NCBI GenBank assembly: GCA_036172245.1
Contig: JAYWIR010000040.1
Location: 248,001-312,000, forward strand
DNA from: Raillietiella orientalis
Taxonomy: Eukaryota
DNA length: 64,000 nt
Direction: 5' to 3'
The position numbers were made by a program, and so were the translations under genes. The notes below the pieces were generated by a model. That model was not told the origin of the DNA and did not search any database. It saw nothing but the letters and a program-made list of their open reading frames with translations. Positions within the stretch are counted from its first letter, which is position 1; each line of letters starts with the position of its first letter. Positions 1 through 58,976 of the stretch are shown piece after piece.

Positions 1-733
1 GAGTAGATCATCAGCGTATGCCAGATGGGTAAGATGCTGGCCATCGATTGTTATGCCTTGCAGTCGTTCGCTCTTCTCGATAAAGGACGACAACGCCTCC
101 ATGTCAGTGAACACCAGCGCCAGGTTCTCGCCGGCGTATCGGCTGAGTCCGACGGTGGCTTGGGCACACTTGACATTGTCCGACATGTGACGTCCAGGGA
201 CTGCACACGTTTGGACCGGAGAGATGAGCCTCGACATGACCTTGCCTAAGCGGTTGGACCAGATCTTCGCCAACCACTTGGCATCGGAGTTCAGGATCGA
301 GATTGGCCTCCATTGAGCGACCTGCGTAAGGTCGCCTCCTTTTGGCAACAATCTCATCCGACTCTCGTAGAAGGACTGTGGAAGTCTTCCTTCTTCGCGG
401 ATGCAGAGGGTCAACTGGTGAAACAAACGCACGTAGGCATGCAGGTACCGCTGATAGTGCGTGATGGGTACACTGTCAGGGCCCGCCGCCACATCCTTGC
501 GTAGTTGACCAAACGCAGTCTTCACCTCATCTTCGGAGAACTCCTCCTCCAGTCTGTTTCGCTGGACATCGTCGGTCCTCTTCTCGAGGTAGCTCAGAAA
601 GGCCTGTTGACTAGAGCGACAGAGATGTTGTCGCCTGAAGTGTTTCGTGTAATGCCTGTGAAAGGCATCCACGATGTCCTCAGACGACTGTCGCTTTTGA
701 CCGTCGTACTGGATGCAGAAGATATCTGTTGCC
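1..733 (-). mobile_element. Family B non-LTR retrotransposon, 5'-truncated fragment (linker/RT part of ORF2), runs off window edge
   Basis: Reverse complement matches ORF2 of the B copies at 56.1-57.1 kb and 61.8-62.7 kb (TDIFCIQYDG...RLLPKGGDL...HLAYADD); has an internal deletion at ~97-104. Confidence 0.9.
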
Positions 734-1402
734 GACTCGGCAGGAGAGGAGCAATCTCCCGACTGTCAAGAAGGTGACTCCGTTGCCGCCTTTTAAAGGC
801 GTAGCGAAAGCAGCGCACCCAGAGAACGCAGCGAAAATTCCGGAGGTTTCCGCAACTACTGTCGCGGAAGCCTCCGAAAATCGCGAAGGCGAATGGAAGG
901 TTGTGGAGAGGAGGAAAGAAAGATCTCCCCAAAAAGCTTCGCAACATCCATCTCTGAGCTCTTCCAAACTAAAAAGCAGTCGCGCGAATACGAAAACACG
1001 CGCGGCTTGTGCCTCTTCCCAGGAAAAAGCCAGCGCCTTCAACGCGTGCAAGTCCGCTTCTGTGACCGCCGAGAAGACCATTCCGGTGCAATCGGACGGA
1101 TGCAAGCGCACGTCGATCGTGCGAGCATCAGACTCCGCAAAGGAGTCCGATAGCGCCGCTGAACGACGCGTAACTCGCGCGGGAGCGAGCGCCCGCAGGG
1201 CTGAAACCCTGAGGCGTGACACACTCGCCGCAAAACGGCGAGTGCTCACCCCGGAACCAACAGGTTCTGCACCCGGGGAGGAGCACTCGATTGCGTGTAG
1301 CACAGTTGAGGCCGGTGGCGACCGCGCCCTCCAGCCCGTCGTACTGCTTACTGCCCGCTCGCCGGGTGAGGCGAGCACCACGGTCTCGCTTTCCCAGCCG
1401 TG

Positions 1403-4400
1403 ATGAGGGCAATCGCGTCTTCTCGTCGTGTTGCCGTCACGTCTTGGAACGTCAACGGGCTCCAACACGAGGAGCAGAGGCGACTAGTCGCTGATGCTCT
1501 GCGCTCCTTCGACTTGACGCTCCCGCAGGAGATTCACAGGATCTCCGAAGAGCAGGCTGCCGAAATCGAACGGAGCGCGGGCGGAACGCTACTTTATAGG
1601 TGCGGCGTTGCACGTACGTGCGGCGTCGCTTTCCTCGTGCGAGGAACTTTGGTGGGAGCGGTGCGCAGCGTTCGTTTCGACACGGAAGGCCAAGTGGGAC
1701 AGCTTGTACTCAAGTGGTCCGACTCGATCGACCTTGTCGTAACCAACGTGTACGCGCCGAGCGGTGCTGGACGATGGGCCGAAAGGATTGAGTTCTTCGG
1801 TACCCTTCAAAGCCAGTGGCTCACTCGATCTCACCCTACTGTGGCCCATCTCATTGCGGGGAACTTTAACGTCCACCTGTATTCCGCGAATAGATCCCAC
1901 AAAAGGGAAAAGTTGCTAGCGGAAGAGATGTGCGCGTCCGTGCACGCGTGCAACTTGTTCGCTAGCGACCTTGTTATTGCAGCAACGCCGGACCACGTCT
2001 ACCTTGATAAACACTTGCTCTCTCGAGTGGGTCGGAGAGGTACCGTGCCGTCCGTGCTTTCAGACCACAACAGGCTCGAATTCGAGTTGCTCCCGCCAGG
2101 CAAGGGGCCTCCAAACTGTTTTTGGAGGATGCCGGCAGGCTGGCTAAACCACTTGGAGGCGGCTGAGCATCTTCGCCAGTACCTCCTCGGCTTTGCCATA
2201 AGTGAGCTCGAGGACTGGGACGATCTGAAAAGATCGATCCGCGAGTTCTGCTGCCGGTTTCCCTTGCACCAGCTTCCCCGCGGCTTCGGAGAGGGCATAT
2301 CCAACAGCGGAGATTTTCTGCAGGCCCGCTCCTTTTCCAGGCGCACGGACGTTAGTCGATTATCCGAGTACAAGGCCAAGGCCGAGCGCCAGGTCTGGCA
2401 CTCAGGGGCGACAGTTCTGCTCGACGACCAGGACCGGGAATGCTCGGCTCCAGCCGACGTGCGACGGATAGTCAGGCGCTATTACTCTTCTCTGTATGCA
2501 GAGGCACCGACGGAACGCAGCCTCTCCCGGCTGCTTCTGCCGATTGATGCACCTGTTGTAGACGAGGTGGAACGCGCGCGTCTTGATGAGCCCTTCACGG
2601 CAGAGGAAATTTCCTCGGCCATCTCTTGGCTCCAAAGACGAAAAGCACCAGGCGAAGATGGGCTCCCTGCGGAATTCTTTTAGTGTTTTGCGGCGGAGCT
2701 CATCTTCCTGGTGCTCCAACTGTCGTCGCTGATGCGAGACTCGGGCGATGTCCCCGCCTCGTTTCGATCAGCGAAGGTGCGTCTACTGCCGAAAGGCGGA
2801 GATTTGCGCCAACTGAACAACTGGCGTCCGATCACATTAGTGAATTCAGTCGTCAAGTTGTTCTCGAAACTTTGGGTGGCGCGGATGGGTAGGATCGCAA
2901 AATCCTTGGTAAGTCCGGAGCAGACGTACGCTGTTCCTGGGCGGTCCATGGACGCGAATCTCCTGTTCATCCGCACATGGCTGCAATTGCAGCATCGTTT
3001 GGCGGTGGATTGTCGTGCGGAAGCAACGCCTTCGATCTCTCACCGACGGAGGCGCGGGACGAAAAAGAAGACACCGGGAGCCTTGGCGGTTGCAGTCGAT
3101 CTGCACAAAGCTTTCGATTGCGTGAACCAAAAGCTTCTTCTTAAGCTTTTGGAATGTCTGGGTCTTTCGGCATCCCTGTTGGCGTACTTGCGCTCCTGCT
3201 GGCGCCACGCGATTACATCCATTGTTTTCAGTGGCTGTCGCGTGTACGGCGTGCCGGTACGACGAGGAATTAGGCAGGGTGATAGCTTAAGCCCGCTGCT
3301 CTTCAGCATCTATTTTGAACTGGTGCTGGAATCTTACAGGCTGACGCTTGCCAACCTGCCGAGCTCCTGTCCAGGTACGCCGGCCGTGGCAGCCTATGCC
3401 GACGACCTGCTTCTCCTGTTGCCCATGTCCACCCCGGCGACATCGCTTGAAGACTTCTTTGAGTTGATTCGTCGCGGTGCGTGCGTGAGCGTTAACAGGA
3501 GTAAGTGTATGGTTGTTCCGGTGGGTGCGACGTGAGAGGGGCAGTCCGACTGGATCGGCCTGGGGATCCCCACGGGCAGGTACCTCAGGTACCTTGGCGC
3601 GCCGTTGGGCGACTTCTGCATCTCAGAAGCGTGGTCGGACTGCCTTCGGAAGGCAGAGCGTGCACTTGGCCCGTTTTCAGGAGGCGAGTTCGTCTTGCCG
3701 GAACGGGCCTGCATCTGGAACACCTTTGTTGCCCCCCTCCTCCGCCCCTGTTTTTTGTTTGTCCATCCCCCCAGGAAGTCAAAGTCTGAGCGCAGCGCCT
3801 TCTACGCAAAGCGTTGTGGGGCGCTGCAAGGTCCCGTGTTAGACTTAAAGACTTGGTGGCGCCGCGTCAGGATACAGGCTTGGGCATCCTGGACTTAAAA
3901 AGCATCGAACTGCAGGTGCAGTTTCGCATGCTGCGGCTCTGTGCCAAGCTGTGGTGTACGCCGTGGTGCTTACCCGCACGCCTTATACTGAGGCGCTGCA
4001 CGGGAAGCGAGGGACTGCTTTCGTTGCTACCCCACTTTCGGCACACCAGAATAGGGTTTGAATTCCCACCGAAACAGCTGTCCTCACTGCTGGAAGCCTA
4101 AAGCTGGATCTCCTGCCGCCCCATGAGCATTATTGCATGGCGGCAGGAATCTTTTTCATCGTGGGCAGCTTCCGAAGGAACGCGCCCGGAAGATCTTCGA
4201 CGCCTGCTACTTCTCCTCAGTCATCAAATAGACGAAGTCATGCAGGACAAGAAGTTGTCGGATCGTCTGGCCACCACACCAATCGCCGCCGCGCTGTCTG
4301 CCCTCAGGGCGAGCAACGACGGTTGCCTACCGGCGGAATGGGAGTTCTCCTGCAAAATAGCGGGAGTCAGTAAGCTCCTCGGCAGCTGGACGACAAAGGA

Positions 4401-4971
4401 GCTGGTGCAAGCCGCCACTCCTCGGAATCGGGCGAAGGGCCTGCTTCGGTGGAGCGAACATTTAAGTGTGCCCCCCGGAGAGACAGTGCCCCCCGTTTGT
4501 TTGGACAGCTTCGTGTTCCCCCTAAAGTGGAAACAAGATGTGCTGCTCTTTTTACATTGTGCATTACACTGTAATAGGCAGCGAAGCATCGTTTCCGGGG
4601 GAGCTGCTTTGCCAAACTGTTTAAAGTGCGGAGAGATCGAGTCTTTTCCGCACCTTTTGCTGGACTGCGGTGACCTCCGGGAACTGTGGCGAAGGCTCAC
4701 TTCGGCCATCATGCCACAAAGAGGCCCTGCCATTGATGTGCTGCGGCGCTTCTTCAGCAGAAATGGACTTTCGGTTTGCGCGATTGTCGCAACCATGTGT
4801 TGCGTTCGCGCCATCGTGATGGCCGGCTACGCCCTGGAGTTGTCAGCGCAGCGAAGGGAGGCTCACCTGCTTGCAGCTCAATTCATGAAGAAGGCTTCAA
4901 GGTGGTCTCATCTTCGTGACAAGGTGAATGAGGACATCACCGGCATACATCGCCGGTTTACACAGCTTTGA
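1403..4971 (+). pseudogene. ORF2 (APE endonuclease-reverse transcriptase-CCHC), disrupted
   Basis: Collinear ORF pieces 1400-2683, 2711-3535, 3605-3898, 3814-4101, 4123-4971 separated by stops/frameshifts. Confidence 0.9.
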
Positions 4972-5294
4972 GAACGGCGTAATCCGGTGACCCCTGCGAC
5001 CTCTCGCCCACCCATACTTCGTCCCCGTTCGCTCGGTAAAATTTCCGGTGCCTATGCTTTTATCCCCGTGTCTTCCAGAGCGATCCCAAAGACCCTTATC
5101 CCGTCCTCCTTATTCATTGTTTTTATTTTATTTTGGTTTCTTTGTGTTCCACGCCCCCCCACACCGTTCGCAAAACTGTTACTCTGGCCTGCGTGCCAGC
5201 AATATTCTCTTCATTCTTGTTCAGTCGTCGGTGTGGAGTTTGGTTCTTAACTGGTTTATTTTGTAAAATTGCTTTTTTTGGTTATGTTATATGG

Positions 5295-5320
5295 AATAAA
5301 CGCCCCGGCGTGTCCGGGTG
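5295..5320 (+). terminator. Representative 3'-terminal signal: AATAAA + CGCCCCGG-N5-CCGGGTG hairpin (14 copies in the window)
   Basis: Follows every non-B ORF2 stop + U-rich UTR and precedes an abrupt switch to another element; function is inferred. Confidence 0.7.
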
Positions 5321-5324
5321 AGAA

Positions 5325-5870
5325 ATCTCCTGCGCTTGTTCTGCAGAGATCACATGGATCTCCTGCAGCAGCGCAAGGTCGAACGATCCTAGAATGGCGG
5401 CCATGTCTCGCCTTCTGCCGGCGTCTGTCATGCCGTTCACGTTCCAAACGGCGATGCGCAGACGACGGCGTGAGGGGATTACCGGCAATACTGCCGGGAA
5501 GATGACGGTGTGGGGAAACCCGCCTCTTCCGAGGCGGGTGAAATGACCATTAGGATTTCAGCCTCCTCAGGCACCTTGGGTACCTTTCCGGCTTCAACCC
5601 CCTCCATCTCCTCCGTGTCTGTGCGTGGTGGTCTCTCGGGTGACGATTCCTGGGATTCTCACACGCTCATTGCACTCTCGCAGTCCGAAGTCATCTCCAC
5701 GCCTTCAGCCTGGAGAGGGGCTATCCGGGGTTTGCTGGACTTCCTTCCAGCCTTCCGGCGGGGTGCCGCGGAGATGGAAACTTGGTTTCCGGCCTGCGCT
5801 TCGGGGTCGGAAGTTACCGACTCCTCGGTGGAGGCTGGACGCCTCACTGCCTTTTTGCAAGTCTTGAAGG
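5325..5870 (-). mobile_element. ORF1 C-terminus / ORF2 start of a D-like element, bounded by two insertions
   Basis: KKAVRRPAS...PRRKAGRKS, then RRRLRIAVWNVNGMTDAGRRRD...EQAQEI; similar to 12067-12620. Confidence 0.85.
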
Positions 5871-7977
5871 TTTACACCCGGGTACGCCCGGGGCGTTTAT
5901 TGTTAAAACTCTACATCCAAAGTACAAGGCCCCGCTCACGGCCATATACACTGGACCTGCCAGGACGCCAAGACGCAGCACAGCGTAGCGTTCCTCAGCA
6001 GCGAAGGGGGATGGGGATAAAACAAAAAGAAAAATAAAAAATAAACAGACAAAAAGAAGTTGGAGGGCAGGGAAGGGATCACTGAACGCTGTGAGGAGGA
6101 CTCATCCGTTGAAGGAAGCCCTCGAGGTCATTCCGTATATTCCCCAGTTGGGGCCATCCGGCAGCTCTCCGCATGAAGCGTTGGGCGTATGGGATGACAT
6201 CCCTCGCGTGTGGACCCACTCCTTCGTTATTGGCGTCGCTCCATGCCGCCACGATGCCACGGACACAGCACAAGGCTGCGATGGCTGCGGATGGGTGCAG
6301 TGCGTCCTTCACGAAGAGGGGCCGAAGAACGTCTCTGGGGGTGCTGCCCGTAGGGAGCCCGAGGGTCGCCCCGAACCGTTCCCAGCGGGGTCGGATGGCA
6401 GCACAGTCCACAATAAGGTGGCAGAGCGATTCCCGCTCTCCGCATTTGACACACTCAGGATCCACAGCTCCCCTTGTCCAGTAGAAGCGGCGTGCGTTGC
6501 AGGGTAAACCCAAGTGCAGCAGTAGCAACGCCGACTCTTGCCACTTAAGGGGCAGGATCCTGGATTCCTTCAGTACCGGGGGCCACTTCAGCACATCCGT
6601 AGGGATGGCGAGCAGCTCGCCCCATCTCATCAATCCACGCGGCTGGACCCTCGGGGTCGTGGCGTCCGCCAGTTCTCCTGTGGTCCAGCCGCTTAACATC
6701 TTCTCCCTGCCTGCAATCTGGCAGGTGACTTGCCACCTCGGCTTCTGGCGATCCTGAAGCGCCCTCAGGAGGTAGGGCATCGCCTTTGCAAGGGGGGTCG
6801 TCAACGCCCACCTCCGACTTCGGGGAAATCCCAGTATTTCCCGCAGGGTGCGGATGGCGTATGGGCCGATTCGCAGGCAGTTCATATTGTTTTCACTCCT
6901 CCGGTTCTGCTTAGCCCATGTGCCAGCAGACTCCTCCAACCAGGCGGAGGAGTTGACGGGGCCACAAATCATCCAATCGTTTGTCTTCGCCAGGGTTGCT
7001 ATGCGTCCGAGCATAAGGCCGCATATTCGGATCTTCCGGCCAGGGCACAGAAGAAACGACGCGAGTCCTTCGCATCGGGACAGACGCCTGGCGAGGAGGC
7101 ATGCCGGAACGCACCAAGGGGTGCTCCACATCTTCGCTGCGATGGCAAGGGTTCGCCACCGCAGCTGGATTTCCACGCGCTCCAGCGTCAGGAGGCCAAG
7201 GCCGCCGTCCCGACGCGGAGCGCACAAGTCCTTCAGAGGGACTCGGGGCCTACCCTTGCCCCAAAGGGCTATGCGGAGGAGGTTCCTTGTCCTCTTTTTG
7301 CATTCTCTGAGGGCGGAGCAAACAAAAAGCAAGAAGCGGAGGATGGGGGCCGCAAAAGCGTTCCAAAACGCGGCCTGTTCCGGCAAGTGAAACTTCCCTT
7401 CCAAGAACGGGCCGATCGATGTCTCAACTTTTTGAAGACAGCTGGACCACGCTTCCGCAGGGGAGTGGTCACCCAACGGCACACCAAGGTACTTGAGGCA
7501 CCTCGCCGTGGGGATCCCCAGACGGACCCAGTCCTGCTGCCCTGCAAACGCTGCACCTACTGGCACCACCAACGACTTCGCCCTGTTGACCTGCAGTCCG
7601 GTCCCACGGCTGAGCAGATCGAAGAAGTCTCCGACCGCCTTCGCCGGGGTAGACATAGGTAACAGGAGAAGAAGGTCGTCGGCATAGGCTGCTACGGAGG
7701 GCGTGCCGGGACACGAGCTCGGCAAGGACGCCAAAGTCACCATGTAGGCTCTCAGAACCAACTCAAAGTAGGTGCTGAAGAGCAGGGGACTCAAGCTATC
7801 TCCCTGCCTGATGCCCCGCCGCACCGTCACGCCATACACCTTCTGACTACTGAAAAAGATGGAGATAATCGCATTCCGCCAGCAAGAGCGCAGGTAGGTA
7901 ATCAAGGAGGGTGGGAAGCCCATGCGACCCAGGAGATTCAACAAAAGCCCCTGGTCAACACAGTCGAACGCCTTGTG
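5871..7977 (-). mobile_element. Family C, 3' half (RT from KAFD to 3' terminus); uninterrupted frame 7944-6079
   Basis: RQGDSLSP, YADD, CVKC..HLIVDC; AATAAA+hairpin at 5901-5875; very similar to 10000-12066. Confidence 0.92.
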
Positions 7978-8090
7978 CGCTCTAAGGTGGACGTGTTTTT
8001 TTGGTGCTCCTCGTGCCAGGAAGTCTCCCCCAGTGCAAGCGTCGTGTGGTTCGGTGGTCGATCAGGCAGCGATGCCTGACGCGATCGACG
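7978..8090 (+). mobile_element. Family D 5' terminus (5' UTR and first ORF1 codons MPD)
   Basis: ggacgtgttttt...ggtgctcctcgtgcc...ggtggtcgatcaggcagcgatgcctgac matches the reverse complement of 23600-23700. Confidence 0.85.
7989..8000 (+). promoter_or_regulatory. Representative 5'-terminal motif GGACGTGTTTTT (candidate internal promoter; 8 copies/variants)
   Basis: Lies within ~5-12 nt of the 5' junction and upstream of the ORF1 ATG in families C-G; function is inferred. Confidence 0.5.
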
Positions 8091-8754
8091 GAGTCGATTC
8101 CGGACCTACTTCTGGACTGCGGTGTCCTACAAGGACTGTGGCGTAGGCTGGCAACAGCACTAATGCATCCCGTGGACACCTCAAGAGACTTGCTGCGACG
8201 ATTTTTCACGCCGAGCGGGCTGTCACTAAGCGCAAGGATTGCAACCATAGGTTGCATACGCGCGATAGTTTCCGTCCGCCAGGCGTTGGTAATCAACGGA
8301 CAGCACCATGAGGTCATCAGCAAAGCATCCTTCTACATGGGAGCATCCGCTAGATGGCCTCATTTGACAGAGGAGACAAAAAGGAATCTCGCCGCAATAC
8401 ACCGCCGGTTTACACACCCTCAGCAGCGGCGAACCCCGTGATCATTGCCCTACCCTCCATAAACTAATTTTGTATTTTCTTTTTACACCCGCGTCCCCAT
8501 AGGCTCCGGAACATTTGAGGTGCTCATCGTTTAAATCCCCGTGAGTACGGAGCCTAACCAAAAACCCGTTACCCTTCCCTCCAGTTTTTGATTTTTGTTT
8601 GTTTCCCCTCATTCCTCCCACGCTGCGAGCGGTTTGTTTACCAGGCCTGCGTGCCGGTAATTTTTCTATGTTCTCTGTCGTTCTGTTGGTTGGGGACATT
8701 GTCCCTGACCAGTTTATTATTATTAATAAACGCCCCGGCGTGACCGGGTGATAA
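8091..8754 (+). mobile_element. 3' terminal fragment of an A/E-like element
   Basis: LLLDCG.LQGLWRRL...IHRRFT C-terminus, U-rich UTR, AATAAA+hairpin 8725-8750. Confidence 0.85.
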
Positions 8755-11700
8755 ATTTCAATCTCCGCCGGCTAACATGTGAGCCGGAAACACAGGTGAA
8801 CGCGATGAACAAGTTGTGCGCCGCCATGCGTGCGCGCAACTTGTTCGCGGGTGAGAGAGGAATGGTCCGCAGCATCGACCACGTCTTCCTCGACGCTGAC
8901 CTGTGTTCATGGGTCGGCAAACGGGGGAGGGTTGCGTCAACCTTTTCGGACCATTCCCGGTTAATTTTCGAGATGCGGCTTTGCGACAAAAAACCGCCAT
9001 CCAGGGACTGGCGTCTGCCAGGGGACTGGACGCGACTCTCAGGTGCGAAGGAACACCTTCGCGAATACCTGAGAGGCGTCACGCTCCGGAATCTCCAAGA
9101 CTGGGACCTTTTTAAGGAATCGGTCCGGGAATTCTGCGAGCAGTTCCCCCTGGACCGCCTGCCCTCCGGATTCGGCGAGGGTCCTCGCAACCATTCGGCC
9201 TATTTACAGGCCCGAAGGTACGAGCGAACCCCTAATGTCCGTCGCCTGGCCGAGTACCGCGCCGGGGCCAAACGCCAAGCCTGGCAATCCGGGTCGGTCA
9301 GCTTGCTGGACGACCAGGGCCGGGAATGTTCGTCCCCGGCGTCGGTACGGCATCTCGTGCGGAGTTATTATTCCTCCCTTTACGCCAGGGCGCCCCCGGA
9401 TCAAGATGCCTCTCGGCTATTGCTTCCGGATGGTGCCCCGGCAATAGGGGAGGAGGAGTCGTTAAGCCTCGATGAGCCTTTTACCACCGGCGAAATTCTC
9501 GCCGGTATCAAAAGGCTCAAGAGGCGGAAAGCTCCAGAGGAAGACGGCTTGCCCGCGGAGTTCTATCAGAGCTTCGCGGAAGAGCTGGCACCCCTGCTGC
9601 TTCAGCTGACAAGGCTGATCCGAGACGAAGGCGATGTTCCCGCCTCGTTTCGGTCAGCCAGAGTGAGGCTCCTTCCGAAAGGGGGAGACCTTAGGAATTT
9701 GAACAACTGGCGTCCGATCACGATTGTGAATACGGACGGCAAGTTGGTTGCCGGGCTATGGGCTTCGCGTCTGGGGCAGGTGGCAGACTCCATTATTAGT
9801 CCGGAGCAGACATATGCTGTTCCCGGGCGAAGTATGGATGCCAACCTCTTCTTCGCGAGCACATGGATGCACGCGCAGAGGTGTCAAAAGGAAGGGAAAG
9901 GAAAAATCGGCAACCCCACTTTGGGGCCGCCAGCAGGGCAGGGAATGGACTCCCGGGCGGGGAAGGGGGCCTTAGCGCTCGCAGTCGATCTCCATAAGGC
10001 GTCCGACTGTGTTGACCAGGGGCTTTTGTTGGAGCTCCTGGTTCGCATGGGCTTCCCACCCTCCCTGATCAACTACCTGCGCTCCTGCTGGCGCCATGCC
10101 ATCATTTCCGTCTCTTTCAGCAGTCAGAAGGTGCATGGCGTGCCGGTGCGGCGGGGCATCAGGCAGGGAGTTGGTGCTGAGAGCCTACAGGGTGACTTTG
10201 GCCTCCTTGCCGAGCTCGTGTCCCGGCACGCCCGCCGTAGCAGCCTAGGCCGACGACCTTCTGCTTCTGTTACCTATGTCCACCCCGGCGAATGCGGTCG
10301 GAGACTTCTTCGATCTGCTCAGCCGTGGGACCGGACTGCAGGTCAACAGGGCGAAGTCGTCGGTGGTGCCAGTAGGTGCGGCGTGGGCAGGGCACCAGGA
10401 CTGGGTCCGTCTGGGGATCCCCACGGCGAGGTGCCTCAAGTACCTTGGTGTGCCGTTGGGTGACTACTCTTCTGCGGAAGCGTGGTCCAGCTGTCTTAAA
10501 AAGTTGAGACGGCGATCGGCCCGTTCCTGGAAGGCAAGTTTCACTTGCCGGAACGGGCCGCGGTTTGGAACGCCTTCGCGGCCCCCATCCTCCGCCCCTT
10601 GCTTTTTGTTTGCCCCGCCCCCAGAGAATGCAAAAAGAGGACGAAGGACCTCCTCCGCATCGCCCTTTGGGGCAAGTGGAGGCCCCGAGTCCCTCTGCAG
10701 GACTTGTGCGCTCCGCGTCGGGACGGCGGCCTTGGCCTCCTGACGCTGGAGCGCGTGGAAATCCAGCTGCGGTGGCGAACCCTCGCCATCGCAGCGAAGA
10801 TGTGGAGCACCCCTTGGTGCGTTCCGCCCCGTCACCTCGCCAGGCGTGTCCCGATGCGATGGACTCGCGTCGTTTCTTCTGTGCCCTGGCCGGAAGATCC
10901 GAAGATGCGGCCTTATGCTCGGACGCATAGCAACCTTGGTGAAGACGAACATTTGCATGGTTTGTGGCCCCGCCAACTCCTCCGCCTGGTTATGAGTCTG
11001 CTGGCACATGGGCTAAGCTGAACCGGAGGAGGTTAAACCACATAAACTGCCTGCGAATCGGCCCATACGCCAACCGCACCCTGCGGGAAATACTGGAATT
11101 TCCTCGGAGTCGCAGGTGGGCGTTGACGACCCCCCTTGCTACGGCGATTCCCTACCTCCTGAGGGCGCTTCAGGATCGCCAGAAGCCGAGGTGGCAAGTC
11201 ACCTGCCAGATCGCAGGCAGGGAGAAGATGTTAAGCGGCTGGATCACAGGAGAACTGGCGGACGCCACGACCCCGAGCGTCCAGCCGCGTGGATTAATGA
11301 GATGGGGCGAGCTGCTCGCCATCCCTACGGATGTGCTGAAGTGGCCCCCGGTACTAAAGGAATCCAGGATCCTGCCCCTTAAGTGGCAAGAGTCGGCGTT
11401 GCTACTGCTGCACTGGGGATTACCCTGCAACGCACGCCGCTTCCACTGGACAAGGGGAACTGTGGATCCTGAGTGTGTCAGGTGCGGAGAGCGGGAATCG
11501 CTCTCCCACCTTATTGTGGACTGTGCTGCATCCGACCCCCCTGGGAACGGTTCTGGGCGACCCTAGGGCTCCCTACGAGCAGCACCCCCAGAGACGTTCT
11601 TCGGCCCCTCTTCGTGAAGGACGCACTGCAGCCAGCCGCAGCCATCGCAGCCTTGTGCTGTGTCCGTGGCATCGTGGCGGCATGGAGCGACGCCAATAAC

Positions 11701-12066
11701 GAAGGAGTGGGTCCACACGCGAGGGATGTCGTCCCATACGCCCAACGCTTCATGCGTAGAGCTGCCGGATGGCCCCAACTGGGGAATATACGGACGGACC
11801 TCGAGGGCTTCCTTCAACGGATGAACCCTCCTCACAGCGTTCAGTGATCCCTTCCCTGCCCTCCAACTTCTTTTTGTCTGTTTATTTTTTTTTATTATTT
11901 TTTTTTTTGTTTTATCCCCATCCCCCTTCGCTGCATAGGAACGCTACGCTGGGCTGCGTGTCGGCGTCCCGGCAGGTCCAGTGCATATGGCCGTGAGCGG
12001 GGCCTTGTACCGCGGATGTAGAGTTGTTTTTTAAAAATAAACGCCCCTGGCGTACCCGTGTGTAAA
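8755..12066 (+). mobile_element. Family C ORF2 from endonuclease (D)FNL to 3' terminus, frameshifted
   Basis: IDHVFLD, SDH, KAPEEDGLPAEFY, NNWRPIT, CVRC..HLIVDC; AATAAA 12036-12041 + degenerate hairpin. Confidence 0.92.
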
Positions 12067-47243: not shown

Positions 47244-47369
47244 CATCGAACTGTACACTGCGCACTGCCTTTGCGACGGCTGGCTCCAGCAGGAAGGCCA
47301 CTCCGCGGGAGTGGTCTCCACCGGATCGCCAAAGTAGCCTTCCCCTGTGAGCCTCTCCATCTCCTGCGC
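47244..47369 (-). mobile_element. Endonuclease fragment (AQE..ERL to VRSVQFD)
   Basis: GRLLWRSGG..GVAFLL..VRSVQFD; upstream continuation of 46234-46828. Confidence 0.8.
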
Positions 47370-49158: not shown

Positions 49159-50459
49159 ATCTCCTGGACGTCCTTTCCCCTGAGGGCGTGAACCTCTTAG
49201 AGAACTGCCAGGTCGAAAGGTCGCAGGGTGTCGGCCACGCTACGCCTCTTGCTTTCGCTACGCAGCCCCTTGACATTCCAACAGGCTATACGCAGTTGCC
49301 GGCAAGAGTTGATTCCACGCATCATGCTAATGATGGTGGTGGCGATTGTGTAGCCGCATCCTGTTCGGGAGGCGGCTGGTCGATGTCCACCTGCATGGAC
49401 GGCGTTTCGGCAACGACCGGAAGGTCGGCAGCCGGACTGAGGTCGATCAGAAGATCGGACCGGGCGGTTTCCACGTAGGAATCCCGCGACCTCGCGGACA
49501 TCGGCTCCTCGCTACACGAGCGCATTTCCTCCTCCTCAGCCTGAGGGGGAGCGACGCGCATAGGGTTGCGGGACTTCCGGCCCGCCTTCCTCTTCGGGAG
49601 GGCGACGGTGGGAGCGTTTCCGGTTTTCGCCTCGAACACTGAAGTTTCCGGTCCTTTGGCTTCCGCCGGTCATCTCACGGCCTTCTTTGCAGCCTTAGGC
49701 GGCTGCATTAAGGTGGCCGCAAGTTCCTCCGCCGCCTTCGCGAAGTTTTTCTCGTCGCTGCTGCTCGCGTTCTTGTCGCAGATTTCCTGCGGCGGTTCCG
49801 CGGCGTTTGCGACAGTTGCGGAAGTCGCGTTTGCCGATCGACGTTCGATCGACGGAACGCGCTCGATGTTAACGCGGCATTCCTTTCTTATTTCGCGCGG
49901 CGTAAATTCTTTTGCGCCGTTTGCGGTTTTTATTGATTTGCTCGCGTTCTGATCTGTAGATTTTTTAGGTTTTTCATTATTGGAATTTTGATTTTTTGTT
50001 TTTTCGTTTGCGACTAATTTCCAGCCTTTTTCGCGGACGGTTAGATCAGAAGTCTCCTTTTGATTCTCCTGTTCCTTTTGTTTGGCTTCTGATTTTAGCT
50101 GTTGGTCGCTGTATGTTTGTTTTTCTGCCTTCTTCGCCTCTTTTAAAATAGCGGTTTGAAGCGTTGTAGCGGCCTTTTTCTGGCACACAACGTTTATGTG
50201 GCCCTTAGCGCCGCACGTTGGGCATGTGGCGTCCGGGCATCTCTTTTTGAAATGACCAAACGTGTTGCACAGCCCGCAGTATTTTTCTTTCCCTACGTAC
50301 CAGAGATCAACGAGCTTGTCGTTAATCTCCAGCTTGTGGAAAATTTCAATGTTTTCGCGGAGAGTTACGCGAGCGGCAAGTTGCCCATTAAATGCGCCTC
50401 TATATGTGAAGGCGTTGCGCTTCTTCCACATCGCGTAAATCTCTGCGAATTTATTGATT
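49159..50459 (-). mobile_element. Family I: ORF1 (AT/lysine-rich, 2x CCHC) and ORF2 start
   Basis: CGLCNTFGHFKKRC, CPTCGAKGHINVVC; TGATG at 49324-49320; CWNVKG. Confidence 0.88.
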
Positions 50460-51415
50460 ATGTGGGCTTTGATAACCCCCCTTGCCCCAGTGCTGCCCTT
50501 TCTCATCAGTGCCAGGGACACTAGGGAGCTGGGGAAATGGACCGTGTCCTGCACCGTAAACGGAAGGACACAACCGATAAAGGCGTGAACATCTCGGCAG
50601 CTAGCGGACGCTGCGACGCCGAGTGTCCCGCCCAAAGGAATTCGACGCTGGGGCGAGCTACTCGGACTATCTCCGGAGGAGATGAAGTGGCCCCCAGCGT
50701 CCTGGAACAGTGGATCTCTCCCCCTTAAATGGCAGGAGGTGGCGTTGCTTGTAATACATTGGGGTTTACCCTGTAAAGCACGCCTGTATCACAACACCCG
50801 GGGGGCTGTGGATCCCCAGTGAGACAGGTGCGGGAAAAAGATACCTTCCCCTACCTTCTCATTGAGTGCAGTGCCATCCGCCCTTCATGGGATCGCCTTA
50901 GGGCGATCCTGGACTTGCGCGGATGCGGCCCCAAGGACGTTTTCAGGCGCCTCTTCTGTAGTGACGCCTTGTTCCCCCCCGCTTCTGTAGCAATCCTCTG
51001 CTGCATTCGAGGGATCGTGGCGGCTTGGAACGCCACCAGAAGAAGACGTCAGCCAACTGGCAACGCCTTACGACGGACTAGCCTATTCGTGCGAGCTGTA
51101 TGCAAGTGGCGCCACTTAGGCGCACATAGGACTCAGCTTGTCCGGATCCTGAATAGGATCTAGAAAACCTATCCGGGCGCATAGTGATCCTTTCCATGCC
51201 CTCCCATCCCTAAAACATTTATCCCCTCCCGTATTTAAACTTTTTGTTTGTTTTTTTTTTTCTGTCCCAACCCCCGCGCATCGGAAGGACCTCTCCGGCA
51301 TAGCGCCGGGAACCAGCAAGCTGTTTTGGCGTGGTGCAGCTTCGGGTTCTCCACTCGAAAAATTAATGTATTTTTTATTTTTTGAAATAAATGCCCCGGC
51401 ATATCCGGGTGAAAA
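50460..51415 (+). mobile_element. Family J, 5'-truncated copy with 3' terminus
   Basis: Paralog of 24865-25820; AATAAA+hairpin 51386-51411. Confidence 0.9.
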
Positions 51416-52094
51416 CGCAAACGCCGCGGAACCGCCGCAGGAAAGCTGGGACAAAGACGCGAGCAGCAGCGACGACAAAAGTTTCGAGAAGGCGACGGAG
51501 GAACTCGCGGCCACCTTAATGCAGCCGCTTAAGGCTGCAAAGAAGGCTGTGAGACGTCCGGTGGAAGCCCAAGGACCGGAAACTCCAGTGTCCGAGGCGG
51601 AAACCGGAAATGCTCCCACCGTCGCCCTCCCGAAGAGGAAGGCGGGCCGGAAGTCCCGCAACCCTATGCGCGTCGCTCCCCCTCAGGCTGAGGAGGAGGA
51701 AATGCGCTCGTGTAGCGAGGAGCCGATGTCCGCGAGGTCGCGGGATTCCTACGTGGAAACCGCCCGGTCCGATCTTCTGATCGACCTCAGTCCGGCTGCC
51801 GACCTTCCGGTCGTTGCCGAAACGCCGTCCATGCAGGTGGACATCGACCAGCCGCCTCCCGAACAGGATGCGGCTACACAATCGCCACCACCATCATTAG
51901 CATGATGCGTGGAATCAACTCTTGCCGGCAACTGCGTATAGCCTGTTGGAATGTCAAGGGGCTGCGTAGCGAAAGCAAGAGGCGTAGCGTGGCCGACACC
52001 CTGCGACCTTTCGACCTGCCACTTCTCCAAGAGGTTCACGCTCTCAGGGGAGAGGACGTCCAGAAAATCGAGAGGCTCACAGGGGGGAGGCAAA
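51416..52094 (+). mobile_element. Family I: ORF1 C-terminus and ORF2 start
   Basis: Inverted paralog of 49159-49810; TGATG 51903-51907. Confidence 0.88.
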
Positions 52095-52704
52095 TTGTGC
52101 GAGGTGTGGAGCCCTAATTGTGCGAGTTGTGGAGAACGGTATTCCCCTCCTTTTGCATTTTGTGGCTCTTCGGCACCCTTGGAACCGTTTTGCCGCGTCA
52201 ATTCGTATCCCCTGTGGCAACCCCAGAGACGGAGTTAGATCTCTCTTCTTTTTCGACGCCCTTCGGCCTTCGACCTCGTTTGCAGCCCTGGACTGCTTTC
52301 GCGGGATAGTCGCTGCATGAAGCAAGACAACGGGAGAACCACGCGATAAAGTTGCCGTCCAGTGCGCAGCCAAATTTAGGGAGACGGCGACAGGATGGAC
52401 CCATCTGAATTCAACAATCCAAAAACAGCTTGCCGGCATCCTGCAAAGGATGAAACGGCCCCACAGCAGACTCTGATCCCTTCCCGAGCTCCCCAGATCT
52501 TTTTTTTATATATTTCTCATTTTTCGTTTTATGTTTTTGTTTTGTCCTTGCCCCCTCTGCTGTCGTGGTGGACCGTACCGGAATACGAACCGGTGACCCG
52601 GCAGGCTTAATTTTGTGTACCAGTGCGTGGCCGGACCACCAGGTCAGCCACCAACGCTTGTTTTATTCGAAAGAATAAACGCCCCGGCGCAACCGGGTGA
52701 AAAA
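52095..52704 (+). mobile_element. 3' terminal fragment with F/D-like 3' UTR
   Basis: PNCASCGER..; AATAAA+hairpin 52674-52699. Confidence 0.85.
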
Positions 52705-54202
52705 CGAGCTCACTTATGGCTAAGCCGCGGAGGTACTGGCGCAGATGCTCCGCCGCCTCCAGGTAACTTAGCCAGTCTGCCGGCATCCTCCAAACACAAT
52801 TTGGAGGCCACTTGCCTGCGGGGAGCAACTCGAACTCGAGCCTGTTGTGTTCTGAAAGCACGGACGGCATGGGACCTCTCCGACCCACTCGAGAGTGCAA
52901 GTGTTCGTAAAGGAATACATGGTCCGGTGATGTTGCCATAACAGGGTCGTTAGCGGACAAGCTGCACGCGTGCACGGACGCGTACATCTCTTTTACTAGC
53001 AACTTTTCCCATTTGTGTGCGCTATTCTCGATCAACAGGTGGACGTTAAAGTCCCCCGCAATGAGATGCGCCACAGTAGGGTGAGATCGAGTGAGCCACT
53101 GGCTTTGAAGGGTACCGAAGAACTCAATCCTTAGGGCCCATCGTCCAGCACCGCTCGGCGCGTACACGTTGGTTACGACAAGGTCGATCGAGTCGGACCA
53201 CTTGAGTACAAGCTGTCTCACTCGGCCTTCCGTGTCGAAGCGAACGCCGCGCACCGCTCCCGCCAAAAATCCTCGTACGAGGAAAGCGACACCTCACGTA
53301 CGTGCGACTCCGCACCTATAATGCAGTTCTCCGCCGGCGCGTTGTTCGATTTCAGCAGCATGCTCTTCAGGTATGCCGTGAATCTCCTGCAGGAGCGTCA
53401 ACTCGAAGGCGCGCAGAGCGTCAGCCACTAGTCGCCTCTTCTCCTCGTGTTGGAGCCCGTTGACGTTCCAAGACGTTACGGCAACACGACGAGAAGACGC
53501 GATTGCCCTCATCACGGCTGGGAAAGCGAGGCCGTGGAGCTCGCCTCACCCGGCGAGCGGGCAGTAAGCAGCACGACGAGCTGGAGGGCGCGGTCGCCAC
53601 CGGCCTCCACCGTGCTGCGCGTAATCTAGTGCTCCTCCCTGGGTGCAGAATCTGTGGGTTTCGGGTTGAGCACTCGCCGTTTCCCGGCGAGTGTGTAAAG
53701 CCTCAGAGCTTCCGCCCTGAGGGCGATCGCTCCCGCGCGAGTTACACGTCGTTCAGCGTCGTTATCGGACTCCTTTACGGAGTCTGACGCTCGCACGATG
53801 GACGTGCGCTTGCATCCGTCCGATCGCACCGGAATCGTCTTTTCGGCGGTCACAGCGGCGGAGTTGCACGCGTTGAAGGCGCCGGCGTTTTCCAAAGCAG
53901 AAAAACCCTCCGCGCGTCTTTTCTTGTTCACGCGGCTGTTCTTTGCCTTCAAAGAGCTAACGGATGGAGGTTGCGCAGCCTTCTTGGGAGATTTTTCTTT
54001 TCTCCTCTCCACAACCTTCCATTCGCCTTACCGATTTTCGCACAGTTCCGCGACTTTCGTCTCCGAAACCTCAGGAGTTTTCGCTACCGCCTCTGAGTGC
54101 ATCGCTTTTGCCACGCCTTTTAAAGGAGGCATCGCAGTCACCTTTGTGGCAGACGGGAGATTGCTCCTCTCTTGCCGAGTCCGCGACCTTGCTTCGCGGC
54201 TC
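52705..54202 (-). mobile_element. Family A: ORF1 C-terminus and endonuclease
   Basis: Paralog of 731-2210; TGATG at 53514-53510. Confidence 0.9.
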
Positions 54203-57200
54203 ATTGCATTTTATAGCGACATGATCGCCAAGATGAAGATGAAGGAGGGAGCTGTTATACCTGGGTTGGCGTTCATTGACGAACAATCCCAGGGAGTGAA
54301 CGTGCGCTACCAATAACAGCCGGTATTCTGCACCGGGTGCAAGCAGTTCGACCACAGGGCGGGCACTTGCCCAACATGCCGTTGCTTCCGCTGCGGCAAA
54401 GAAGGACATCAAGTCCGAAACTGCCCGCAACCGAAGTTGGCTCCTCCTGCAAGAAGCACAGACATGCTAAATGGAGCTGTCCGGAATTCGCCAATTGCAG
54501 AAGGATTCGAGGACTCTCCCGTGACAGAAACATCAAGGCGGCCGAACAGCCTCAGAAGTTGGCAGCAAGTCCGAACAAGGTGAAGGAAGCCGTCCATGTA
54601 TCGACGGACGGCTTCATTGAGGTAGGAACGAAAGGAAATAGGAGGATGCTCGTCAACGAGAAAGAAACCCCTCTTATTCTAGAAGGAGCAGCGCAGGAAG
54701 GCGTAAAGATGGAGGTAGCGCAGGAACGTGCGAAAGAAGGAAACCAGGAAGCCACTCCAGTGTCGCAGGAGGACCTGCAGTCCACGGAGGAGTTGGCAAC
54801 ACTAGCGGAGGAAGTTAAGGAGGTGCAAAGCGGGCCTCAGCAAGAGAAAATCTTGAGAACATCTGCAATGCACACGAGAAGGTGAACCGGGTTGTGGAGG
54901 TCACCGGCGCGAGACCTTAGAAGAACAGCTTCTCGACGTAAAGGCGAACTTCTGCGCAAAGGTCGAGATAGAGGCGCTATCTCGAAAATTGATCGGGCGG
55001 GCCGAACACTTTACGGAGGAGGCGGAAGTAACCGACCTCACCGGAACGGAGAGTGACGCCGGCAGCGAGAAGCCCGCTGCTTCTTCATCGTCTGGAAGAG
55101 CACGCTCTTTCAGACAGAAGAAGCTCAGGAAGGCCAGGAAATAGGTCTTCCCCTTTTATGGCCTCTTGCCTATCGACCGCCAAGAGGCTGAACATCGCCT
55201 CCTGGAATGTAAACGGTGTGGTCGACCAGGGAAAAAGAAAAAGGATTGTGCGGACCATCGCACAACAAGACCCACAAGATGGATCTCGAGATTAGTCAGC
55301 GAATGGAACGGCGATTCAACGGGCAGATGTTCGTCAGCGAGGGAGAACGGAACACGCAGGGTGTGGCGGTCCTAATGAAGAAACACTTTGCCACCACTAT
55401 TCTGGAAGTGTTCTGTCCCCAACCCGGACGAATCATCCGCGTGCGACTGGCCTGGTCCGCGACTGTTCCCCTTATCCTGGTGAACGTGTACGGGCCCCAC
55501 AGGCTAAAACATCGTTGTGCGGAGGCGCTGCATGCAGCACTCCGTGAAAAGGTCGCCCCCAAGGACGTCGTGATTGTTGCTGGCGATCTCAACATATTGG
55601 ATGAGATCACTCATTCCCAAGAAGCCAGAGGAAGGACGGCGTATCGGCGGCTATCCGACGAGTTCGGACTGGTGTGGCGGACAGCAAGTCGCAAGCTGAT
55701 CGATCACGTACTCCACAGCACCGAACTAGGGAATCGCATTCAGGGTTTTCGAGACACATTGACCACTCTGTCCGATCGCCCGTTGATGCGGTTTTCCCTA
55801 AGAACGGAAAATCCTCGGCGGAGGCAAGGCACCAGGGCGGCGCTCATCAGCATGCCCGCCTGGTTCGAGACACATCCTGGACATCAGCAGGTCCTGGAGA
55901 CGATTCTGAAGACCACAAAAAATCATAAGAGTCACCGACTGGGACAGCTTGAAACACAGGATACACCTGTTTGCAAATATGCAATTCGGGGATAGGCACT
56001 TGAGGCAGGAGGCGAACCGGGAGCTGAACATCCAAGATCCCTCACTCTTAAAGTACTTCGAACAGTACGAGAGTCGGTACGTATTCAACAACATAAAAGA
56101 GGAACTCGGCGTGCTGGAGAAGAGAAATCTGGCAACAGATATCTTCTGCATCCAGTACGACGGTCAAGAGCGACAGTCGTCCGAAGATATAGTGGAAGCC
56201 TTTCACAGGCATCACATGAAACACTTCAGGCGACAACATCTCTGTCGCTCTAGTCAACAAGCCCTTCTGAGCTATCTCCAGAACAGGACCGACGATCTCC
56301 AACGAAACAGACTGGAGGAGGAGTTCTCCGAAGATGAGGTGAAGACTGCGTTTGGTCAACTACGCAAGGATGTGGCAGCGGGCCCTGACAGTGTACCCAT
56401 CACGCACTATCAGCGGTACCTGCATGCCTACCTGCGTTTGTTCCACCAGTTGAACCTCTGCATCCGCGAAGAAGGAAGCCTTCCACAGTCCTTCTACGAG
56501 AGTCGGATGAGATTGTTGCCAAAAGGAGGCGACCTCACGCAGGTCGCTCAATGGAGGCCAATCTCGATCCTGAACTCAGACGACAAGTGGTTGGCGAAGA
56601 TCTGAATCCAACCGCTTAGGCAAAGGTCATGTCGAGGCTCATCTCTCCGGTCCAAACGTGTGCAGTCCCTGGACGTCACATGTCGGACAATGTCAAGTGT
56701 GCCCAGGCCACCGTCGGACTCAGCCGATACGTCGGCGAGAACCTGGCGCTGGTGTTCACTGACATGGAGAATGCTTTCGACTCCATAGACCATGGGATGC
56801 TGCTGAAGGTTCTGGAGAAGCTAGGCCTTCCGGAACACTTCAGCAACTTCGTGGGGGTGGTACTCCAGAACTAGTACTGCCGAATCAAAATCTACGGCCA
56901 GGAGACGGCAGCAATCCGGATGGAATTCGGAGTCCGGCAGGGCGATTCGCGAAGTCCGATGCTGTTCGTCATCTACATGGAGGCGTTGTCGTCCTTTATC
57001 GAGAAGAGCGAACGACTGCAAGGCATAACGATCGATGGCCAGCGTCTTACCCATCTGGCATACGCAGATGATCTACTCTTCTTTATCAAGGGAGAGAGAA
57101 ATCAACGAGCGTTTCTGGATGTGGTAGACCTGATGGATCAAGGCCTCGCTCTAAAGATCAACGCCCAGAAAAGCCAGCTCTTGCCCGTTGGAATCCTCGA

Positions 57201-58792
57201 TCTCTCCGCTCTAGCGGAAAGAGGATTCCGAACGGTGGACAAGGCCAAGTACCTGGGTGTCTACATTGGCGACGTCTCCGCGTCGAAGCTATTGTGGACC
57301 GAGATCCTAGGGAAAACGGCCAAGGAAGCAGCCAAGTACACCCGAACGGACCTTGGAATGAAGCGAAAGGCCAACATATGGAACGGAGTACTCCTTCCAA
57401 AAGTGCTCTTCGGGGCGGCCTTCGCGAGGATGAACAAGGAAACCACGAGGGAGTTCGACAAGCTGCAGAGAAAAACACTGTGGGGCCACTATCGCCCAAG
57501 AGTCCGACTAAAACCCCTGTGTCGTCCCAAGGAAGAAGGCGGTTCCGGGATGAAGTCGCTTGCACATTCCATGGAAATCATGGATACGCGACACATCCTG
57601 GACATTGCCACTTACTGGGATGACTGGCCGTATGCGGCGCACAGGGCCTACGCGTTGTTGCTTAACAACTCGAAAGGCCTGATGACTGCGCTGCTAGGCA
57701 TAGCAGGCAAATGAAACAAAATCGACCCCACCTGGACGAGGAAGCAACGGCTGGTGCGGAAGCACCAAATCAAGATCGTGCCGCGAAGCAGGGAACTCTG
57801 GCAGGACGAGTCCATCCTGGTGATCCCTTGGTTGCTTCCTGTCCCGCCGGACACGAGAAGCTGGATCTACCAGCGATCCAGAGTTACCCTACTGCAAATC
57901 CAGGAGTGGAGGCGAGGAGGCTACCTAAATCAAACACGTATACTTCGGTATACAGAGATGATATTAGGAAGGTTTACCCACAGGACCTGCGAAGTGTGGT
58001 TCAACCACAACGACTTCGCATGGTCGAGGGTAACCAGAACAAACCTCCGAAGGCTTATCCAAGAAAACGACCGTGACACCAGTGCCCTCCAGGAAGCCAC
58101 CGAACGCTACGGGAGTGAACGGTTCAACCTGTTAGCGATCGGCACGACGCTCTGGAGGAGTGACCTTCAACCGGGCACCCAGGATGACCTCCTGATGTTT
58201 TATCACGGAGGAATCCAGAGTGGGTCCCGATTGCAGCACATCACAGGAAGACGGGAAGACCGAGACTGCGCAGCATGTGGAGACGACGACACGAGACTTC
58301 ACGTCTTGACGTGTCCACACTCCTGCATGACTAGCTGATCCTGAAAAGGATCATAGGACTTACCAAGAAGTCCGTTATGAAGATCCTCGCCGGGATGTTT
58401 CATGGGGATGGTAATGTTCCCTGTTACAATCCCATGGTGAGGACGACCATAGCCCTCTTCATCAACGCCATACTTGTGCGATGGTGAAAAATGAGGAAAG
58501 CCAGGAGAGTCGCACCACCGATGGAGATCCAACAAGGGTTCTTGAAGAGGGAAATCGGCATCACGAACTGCGGGAAGATCCACGCCTGGACGTACCGATT
58601 CATCCTGAAGAGGATTTAGGACGACGCCCGGGACCATCCAGCTGGAAGTCCCCCCTGAAAAGCAGAGCTCTAGTGCAACCCCAGGACCCCCAAGTGCAAA
58701 AGGTTTGTATTGAGTGAATGAGAGTGCGAATGTAAATTTTGTATTTTTGTAGAAAAATAAACTTACCCCACCCCTTGTGGGACTTGGAGAAA
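54203..58792 (+). mobile_element. Family B (more divergent L1/Tx1-like), 5'-truncated decayed copy with 3' terminus
   Basis: ORF1 knuckles, ASWNVNG, NVYGP, GDLN, AFDSIDH, RQGD, YADD, CAAC..HVLTC; AATAAA 58756-58761. Confidence 0.92.
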
Positions 58793-58976
58793 CCTGCCGA
58801 GTCGGTGAACTTGCTTCGCGGCTCCAAGTATTGTGCGCTCGACAACATAATCTGTTAAATTGTGCTCGTGTGTGCCCGAAGAGGGAAGTTTTCCAGACGA
58901 AACTACAAAAGAAGCGGCGAGGAGACCGCGGCAAAAGACCTGGCAGTGGTCCCGTGCAGCAAGACCAGCTGCCAGG

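Follow-up and report, generated by a model that had tools for sequence, protein, structure and literature searches.

A 64,000-nt window (positions 248,001 to 312,000 of contig JAYWIR010000040.1, Raillietiella orientalis assembly GCA_036172245.1) was analyzed following an original prediction that it holds many families of retrotransposons lacking long terminal repeats (non-LTR elements) that insert site-specifically into each other's coding sequences. The window, by which this whole stretch is meant below, is most probably an island of at least eight related L1-like lineages, each of which nicks its own short stretch, in one orientation, inside copies of the other lineages. Independent, position- and strand-specific insertion into each other's coding sequence is supported as the best reading of the window.

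The window has a GC content of 58% overall (54-63% along its whole length), is filled by long open frames on both strands and consists almost entirely of ∼30 fragments of non-LTR elements with an APE endonuclease (EN) and a reverse transcriptase (RT). A Pfam scan of 15 of the longest frames located Exo_endo_phos (PF03372) in three copies (E = 3e-17, 3.5e-15 and 1.2e-7), the RT domain RVT_1 (PF00078) in 6 of the 15 frames, one frame with both PF03372 and PF00078, the Cys-rich C-terminal zf-RVT (PF13966) in one frame (24039-25568) and zf-CCHC (PF00098) in two (58851-60764 and 20851-22227). CCHC knuckle motifs were readable in the translations of open reading frame 1 (ORF1) of copies E1, T and Z, and the solved structures closest to the endonuclease of E1 were the human L1 endonuclease and loop-grafted variants (E = 2e-6 to 1e-5). 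The domains and the similarity to the L1 endonuclease identify the elements as L1-like non-LTR retrotransposons with a CCHC ORF1. In a protein homologue search the best match was P0001 (63% identity), a metagenome contig-edge fragment without a junction, and the others reached at most 32%; an atlas search returned generic endonuclease/RT clusters only, with one Chlorophyta-rich cluster among the top matches as a lead.

The 5' ends of the elements read GGACGTGTTTTT. The exact 5' motif GGACGTGT was present 6 times in the window against 2.0 expected, and 9 plausible 5' ends were obtained when up to 2 mismatches to it were allowed, 7 of them on the − strand. AATAAA was present 47 times against 10.9 expected. 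The 3' ends (n = 14, 13 on the + strand) read AATAAA(C/T)G(C/T)CCCGG...CCGGGTG followed by 1-5 A; all 14 stop at the hairpin, TG and this short A-run and none has a poly(A) tail, so that they resemble the ends of 'stringent' long interspersed nuclear elements (LINEs) with a specific 3' end. A covariation test of the hairpin gave 5 predicted pairs, 0 of them with a compensatory change, because the hairpin sequence itself is conserved. A1 and A2 (54203-64000) belong to a more distant lineage with its own ends.

Reference coordinates (ref) are those of E1 (37477-43002, +), the sole full-length copy. Segments, designated by letters as in the map given further below, were defined by tblastn with the E1 frames, self-blastn and translated mapping of every flank, and divide 97-64000 into 30 segments with 31 junctions. 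It had been claimed that more than 20 junctions fall on eight recurring positions, each with a fixed orientation. The mapping bears this out: 25 of the 31 junctions lie on the same eight homologous positions, and a single orientation was found at every site used more than once. The sites are:

ORF1 PxKA, ref 1435-1456, sense: 4 junctions (5868, 12062, 22263, 32998).
EN QEI, ref 1994-2003, antisense: 5323, 49157 and 47368, the last being the 5' side of b'.
EN QEI, second position, ref 2030, antisense: the Z junction at 30974, for a cluster total of 4.
EN VxFD, ref 2117-2119, antisense: 46822 and 47244, both sides of one insertion.
EN GDFN, ref 2303-2319, sense: 2 junctions (8752, 19956).
Linker LRNL/ISEL, ref 2626-2652, antisense: 4 junctions (34350, 37476, 43002, 52705).
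Linker GFG, ref 2731-2736, antisense: 2 junctions (37365, 46229).
RT KAFD, ref 3526-3550, antisense: 3 junctions (7988, 16241, 23694).
'DSA' in the b-type ORF1 tail (family A of the original prediction), outside the E1 coordinates, antisense: 4 junctions (733, 54202, 58794, 58824).

The per-site counts first given stand as counts of junctions but not of events, VxFD being one event and QEI two positions 27 nt apart. Clustering was therefore compared with random placement by simulation of 21 events rather than junctions, leaving out three A-into-b events, which have no E1 coordinates, and three unclean element ends. Same-orientation pairs at most 30 nt apart numbered 17 of 210, against a random mean of 1.14 and a maximum of 10 (17 or more in 0 of 100,000 simulations). 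Pairs at most 10 nt apart numbered 6 against a mean of 0.39, a value equalled in 3 of 100,000 simulations.

At all antisense sites, host sequence upstream of the site borders the 3' end of the insert and host sequence downstream of it borders the 5' end; sense sites show the reverse arrangement. Where a site was seen from both sides, in different events, the 5' junction was offset from the 3' junction in the direction expected of a staggered second nick. The offset is ∼24 nt at KAFD and, with less certainty, ∼26 nt at the linker, ∼15-21 nt at PxKA and ∼16 nt at GDFN, since hosts carry indels and the 5' junctions possibly hold extra bases. This geometry fits the prediction of target-primed reverse transcription, the mechanism established for L1, R1 and R2.

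Target-site duplications or empty-site forms identify E1, A1 and b' as real insertion events. E1 is flanked by a duplication with an exact 16-nt core (ATGGAGATTCCGGAGC) at 37454-37469 and 43007-43022, which extends to ∼26 nt with mismatches, and in public run X1 one contig joins 37456 to 43010 with 12 shared letters, corresponding to the form without E1. A1 is flanked by a 30-nt repeat, 27/30 identical. M' (96% identical to M) is a paralog of M and K without b', and M and K both hold the duplicated CAGGAGAT. Public runs X2 and X3 gave matches only near 42823-42861 (39 nt, E1 3' region), at contig depths of thousands and with poly-C/poly-T loose ends; this pile-up looks like a low-complexity artefact and not like the element.

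A single ancestral junction would give equal divergence on both of its sides. In all seven same-site pairs that were compared the insert was more similar than the host (inserts 69-95%, hosts 52-74%), and in 80-nt windows the step in identity fell at the junction in 7/7. The unequal identities therefore indicate independent insertions. Two claims of the original prediction, that similar inserted ends meet diverged host flanks and that this reflects independent insertion rather than segmental duplication, held for every pair:

b and b', QEI-a: insert 75%, host 52%.
d and P, PxKA: insert 95%, host (c/Q) 74%.
E1 and X', linker: insert 90%, host 73%.
E1 and G3, linker: insert 69%, host 53%.
P' and G1, GFG: insert 76%, host 65%.
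e1 and V, KAFD: insert 78%, host 72%.
U and U', PxKA: insert 89%, host (V/X') 66%.

The d|c and P|Q junctions, 89% identical overall, were also considered as one duplicated junction; this was ruled out by the difference between their inserts and their hosts.

Trees were calculated from the last 400 nt of the 14 hairpin-ended copies and from the first 1200 nt of seven copies with 5' ends. In the 3'-end tree four of the five sister pairs have a site in common: (b,b') at QEI-a, (d,P) at PxKA, (P',G1) at GFG and (E1,G3) at the linker. The 5'-end tree pairs E1 with X', both at the linker, and U with U', both at PxKA; the 105-nt e1 is nearest to V (81/105), both at KAFD, which brings the 5'-end comparisons to 3/3. 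With a common site in 7 of the 8 sister comparisons, site use follows descent, in line with the 'private landing pads' that had been proposed. Each lineage has a defined insertion site and orientation, as in the Tx1 group, with the W lineage as the exception, and the lineages in the window number at least eight. Hosts are mostly of other lineages and several lineages are both guest and host. Copies of the PxKA lineage lie in Q, c, V and X', of the linker lineage in H, P' and b'', and of the KAFD lineage in T, d and W. The insertion of P' into H is at least within one clade (73-77% identity).

Five of the sites encode conserved enzyme residues (GDFN, KAFD, QEI/REI, VxFD and residues beside the conserved DWD) and are alignable in nearly all lineages, the distant A lineage included. 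Only the E1/Q/V/X'/c/M group has the PxKA stretch; H lacks it, and so does the ORF1 of the PxKA lineage itself (U'). A core [TG]TCGA[TC] is present 2-9 times per element on the sense strand, yet particular instances alone are used, so that the core by itself cannot explain the recurrence.

The insertions form a nested chain, read leftward from the host JKM as JKM > G1 > H > P' > X' > U' > Z > W > V > U > T > Q > P > e2. The chain comprises 13 successive insertions, each element being broken by the next, and contains right-hand halves only, which accounts for the strand distribution of the 3' and 5' ends. Three inserts are present whole as side branches, one in H (E1) and two in JKM (G2 and b'). 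The missing halves are not provided by the left end of the window (the A fragment, b, c, d and e1); because e joins a KAFD-lineage 5' end to a GDFN-lineage 3' end, a deletion is likely there. With 30 fragments and a 13-step chain in 64 kb, the window contains a cluster of mutually nested copies of the kind known for Zepp. The segments, from left to right, are:

97..733 (−): A-lineage fragment, 5'-truncated, adjoining the b-type ORF1 tail at 'DSA'.
728..5323 (+): b, QEI-a lineage, with ORF1 tail, complete ORF2 region and 3' hairpin end; the 3' end (5323) lies antisense in host c at ref 2003.
5324..5868 (−): c, fragment of a host (ref 1441-2003) into which b has inserted at QEI and d at PxKA.
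5869..7988 (−): d, PxKA lineage, from ref ∼3526 through the 3' end, which lies in c at PxKA (sense); d itself is cut at KAFD by e1.
7989..8752 (+): e, 764 bp, in which ∼100 nt of a KAFD-lineage 5' end (e1) are joined near 8090 to a GDFN-lineage 3' end (e2, ∼660 nt, ref ∼5077 to the end).
8753..12062 (+): P, PxKA lineage, from ref 2303 through the 3' end (12062), which lies in Q at PxKA; P was entered by e2 at GDFN (sense).
12063..16241 (+): Q, KAFD lineage, ref 1435 to the 3' end, which lies in T at KAFD (antisense).
16242..19956 (−): T, GDFN lineage, 5' end (GGACGTGT at 19956) to ref 3550; ORF1 open, 606 aa.
19957..22263 (−): U, PxKA lineage, from the 5' end up to ref 2319, where T entered it at GDFN (sense).
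22264..23694 (−): V, KAFD lineage, from the 5' end up to ref 1456, where U entered it at PxKA (sense).
23695..25818 (+): W, from ref ∼3527 through the 3' end, entered by V at KAFD (antisense). The 3' end (25818) adjoins Z ORF1 just before the zinc knuckles, at a non-recurrent site.
25819..30974 (+): Z, ORF1 from the knuckle region on, ORF2 (726-aa open stretch with EN and RT) and 3' end, which lies at 30974 in U' at ref 2030 (antisense).
30975..32998 (−): U', PxKA lineage, 5' end to ref 2030.
32999..34350 (−): X', L1-site (linker) lineage, ∼90% identical to E1, from the 5' end up to ref 1456, where U' entered it at PxKA.
34351..37365 (+): P', GFG lineage, from ref 2626 through the 3' end (37365), which lies in H at GFG; P' was entered by X' at the linker (antisense).
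37366..37476 (−): H2, the part of host H (ref 2626-2736) that separates the 3' end of P' from the 5' end of E1, carrying the left copy of the E1 target-site duplication (37454-37469).
37477..43002 (+): E1, full-length, 5.5 kb; ORF1 open (554 aa), ORF2 with one frameshift and one in-frame stop.
43003..45602 (−): H1, the portion of host H that runs from the 5' end (45602) up to ref 2652, with the right duplication copy (43007-43022).
45603..46229 (+): G1, GFG lineage, ref ∼5019 to the 3' end, which lies in J at GFG; its left side (45603) adjoins the 5' end of H at a non-recurrent site.
46230..46822 (−): J, part of host JKM, ref 2119-2731.
46823..47244 (+): G2, 5'-truncated insert at VxFD (antisense) between J and K.
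47245..47368 (−): K, part of host JKM, ref 1994-2117.
47369..49157 (+): b', a 5'-truncated member of the QEI-a lineage, between K and M with the duplicated CAGGAGAT.
49158..50458 (−): M, part of host JKM, ref 682-2003.
50459..51411 (+): W', related to W (87%) and 5'-truncated, with its 3' end in the M' ORF1 tail at a non-recurrent site.
51412..52105 (+): M', inverted paralog of M (96%), continuous across the b' insertion point; right boundary approximate.
52106..52705 (+): G3, E1 relative at the 3' end; left boundary approximate. The 3' end (52705) lies antisense in b'', at ref 2645 within the linker site.
52706..54202 (−): b'', QEI-a lineage (identity to b 85-87%), extending from the 'DSA' break in the ORF1 tail to ref 2645.
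54203..58794 (+): A1, an insert of the A lineage with its 5' truncation inside ORF1; the 30 nt after it (58795-58824) are a repeat of 54173-54202 (27/30).
58825..64000 (+): A2, A lineage, beginning directly after the duplicated 30 nt and leaving the window; ORF1 open (637 aa, CCHC knuckles), ORF2 in pieces.

Several features of the map are recorded here separately. The A fragment at 97..733 is 95-96% identical to 56131-56769 and 61769-62405 and lacks ∼207 nt relative to A1 (1-102 corresponds to A1 56977-57078, 97-733 to 56131-56769). Adjoining the e1 junction, d (7960-7988) appears to lack 12 nt, the four codons for VDLH of RT motif A, which are present in the 95% identical P (9985-10030). The flanks of e come from different hosts, d at KAFD on the left and P at GDFN on the right, and either a deletion has joined two inserts here or e is a non-autonomous chimera; e1+e2 and M'+G3 may each be a single internally deleted element. 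Both sides of the M'|G3 boundary carry a 19-nt near-repeat, AATTGTGCGAG(G/T)TGTGGAG. G1, G3 and e2 (45603, ∼52106 and ∼8091) all start a short way upstream of the C-terminal Cys motif NPxCxxCG, at about ref 5019-5077; reverse transcription may preferentially stop there, or the position may be another hot spot. On either side of W', 49164-49811 and 51416-52063 form a 96% inverted duplication, and the arrangement M(−), W'(+), M'(+) is not accounted for by simple insertion. A1 and A2 (54203-58824 and 58825-64000) stand head to tail with only the 30-nt duplicated target between them; regeneration of the target by duplication and repeated insertion there would yield tandem arrays. The 5' region of b and b'' was also considered as an antisense A-type 3' fragment. 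This was rejected, as the + frame encodes an ORF1-tail motif (GEWKVVERRKER-like) that is common to E1, Z and A2; the 30 nt common to b'' and the A1 end are better taken as a target-site duplication.

In the proposed explanation, the lineages of the window would insert by target-primed reverse transcription at targets most of which encode conserved residues (the five enzyme stretches named above and a PxKA stretch of ORF1); such targets would be common across lineages and slow to mutate away. The first nick would set the 3' junction, and a second nick ∼8-30 bp off would make the duplication and set the 5' junction. Every new copy would add fresh targets, so that insertions would pile into earlier ones and the elements would stay in the island; the 13-step chain and the confinement would both result from this supply. 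Specificity is presumably carried by the endonuclease domain, possibly with other parts of ORF2 or ORF1, and confinement to the island would follow from it. By analogy with Zepp clusters, the island may be centromere-like.

Several observations weigh against an island of site-specific lineages. The sample is its weakest point, as all events, 1 to 4 for each site, come from a single 64-kb window. Six of the 31 junctions (25818, 45602, 50458, 51411, ∼52105 and ∼8090) fit no recurrent site. The sisters W and W' lie at two different ORF1 positions and thus have no fixed site, and their next relatives lie at others (e2 at GDFN, Z at ref 2030, Q at KAFD, G2 at VxFD). Host indels and possible extra bases at the junctions leave an uncertainty of a few nt in the exact positions of 5' junctions, which reaches up to 12 nt for d. 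The duplicated stretch at the linker site differs strongly between H/P' and b'', which argues against simple recognition of the stretch itself; an adjoining GACTGGGAC is common to these hosts. In insert orientation the flanks at GFG, VxFD and KAFD all start with ATCGA. Because these sites share that core at the nick, some of the eight may represent one looser specificity, and the pads would then be less distinct than eight specificities. U and U' share a stretch of ∼500 bp at 97-100% identity (20296-20796 and 31030-31530, 10 kb apart) in a pair that is otherwise 77-92% identical, which suggests gene conversion or recent exchange between them. In public run X1, 44% of sampled E1 words were present, in contigs mostly of 200-400 nt, too short for a junction survey. 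A scan of metagenomes for the 3' hairpin motif returned 9 loci, all unrelated, with 0 tblastn matches to the E1 proteins.

The shared ATCGA core is also the starting point of an alternative that we consider unlikely, in which insertion is targeted regionally, by chromatin or by a feature of existing copies, and combined with a weak nick preference for ATCGA/TTCAAT at conserved codons. The match of lineage to site would then be a small-sample effect or the result of bursts into available copies. Besides the ATCGA flanks at the 3' junctions of GFG, VxFD and KAFD, the E1 and e2 flanks start with TTCAAT, the W/W' pair agrees with such a preference, and TCGAT is present at GFG in only 2 of 9 hosts, exactly the two that were entered, the 7 unhit copies being without it. 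A weak preference does not predict a common site in seven of eight sister pairs, nor repeated use of the same instance out of 2-9 cores, to the nucleotide in (U,U'), (E1,X') and (b,b'), and neither ATCGA nor TTCAAT is found at the PxKA and QEI flanks.

It is very unlikely that the recurrence goes back to a small number of ancestral junctions multiplied within a satellite-like array through segmental duplication, unequal exchange or gene conversion. Unequal exchange alters such arrays in Chlamydomonas, according to the passages on them in PMC9977147, and both the M/M' inverted duplication and the U/U' stretch speak for such copying; the equal identity that copying predicts is nevertheless contradicted by all seven pairs, and the same site occurs once as a 3' and once as a 5' junction in unrelated hosts, with a consistent offset. 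Least probable of all is an assembly artefact in which a repeat-rich region was wrongly stitched at conserved motifs. The region is entirely repetitive and the short contigs of the public run cannot confirm long-range order, but misjoins would link homologous to homologous sequence, not canonical termini to internal positions with duplications and a consistent strand rule.

The island of site-specific lineages may be taken one step further, to a closed ecosystem, a view that is possible but somewhat doubtful. In it, sibling LINEs have evolved endonuclease specificities for the DNA of each other's indispensable motifs, and their mutual parasitism confines them to a growing island. Each lineage would live only in its competitors and disable the copy that it enters, and escape would cost the target its function. 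Site-specific LINEs are textbook examples of transposons that spare the host through a safe, conserved, multicopy target. If the island is as proposed, the safe target would be other transposons of the same superfamily, divided among lineages, and genomic parasites would here clearly partition their niches and compete by interference. The island would also supply closely related APE endonucleases that differ in their long recognition sites, a natural set useful for studying the evolution of LINE target specificity, and could explain mechanistically why Zepp-type elements form one self-nested cluster per chromosome. The closed ecosystem, if true, would give a sequence-level mechanism for the origin and singleness of Zepp-type clusters, the presumed centromeres of several green algae; the relevant passages of the centromere papers leave the reason for a single cluster per chromosome unexplained.

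The Tx1 group (Tx1L, Keno, Mutsu, Kibi and others), R1 and TRAS/SART are sequence-specific APE-type LINEs that insert precisely into repeated sequences, make defined duplications and have many copies of full length. They enter multicopy genes of the host, microsatellites, telomeric repeats or a DNA transposon, Tx1L targeting another transposon (Tx1D). The elements of the window share with them the APE endonuclease and precise repeated targets, but their targets are the coding sequences of sibling LINE lineages, several of which act both as host and as guest. Drosophila HeT-A/TART/TAHRE and Dictyostelium DIRS-1 form arrays by end attachment or regional preference. They are similar in that several lineages occupy one chromosomal niche in arrays made of themselves, whereas the elements of the window nick fixed internal coding positions and leave duplications.

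Zepp (Chlorella/Coccomyxa) and ZeppL (Chlamydomonas) are described, in the passages devoted to them, as GC-rich L1-type LINEs found nearly always in nested clusters, in which new copies target existing ones and which occur once per chromosome at the presumed centromere (PMC3446292, PMC8226300, PMC9940879, PMC11005252). The window likewise consists of GC-rich L1-type elements nested in their own kind. The published descriptions set it apart, as they concern one family, or one or two, per species, whereas the window holds at least eight lineages and many full-length 5' ends; for Chlorella centromeres the relevant passage names several families of transposable elements (PMC11005252). Table 3 of PMC3747384 gives frequent 5' truncation, tandem 3' ends and a poly(A) tail for Zepp, in place of which the window has a hairpin and short A-run. 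Positions and orientations in the window are lineage-specific, and the passages on Zepp give neither fixed positions within the element nor multiple lineages that differ in position. No description of a multi-lineage, position-specific LINE network was found in the literature searched, which did not extend to the primary Zepp papers (Higashiyama 1997, Yamamoto 2003) that may bear on it. Relative to site-specific LINEs and to self-nesting Zepp clusters, what is new in the window is reciprocal, partitioned targeting among sibling lineages.

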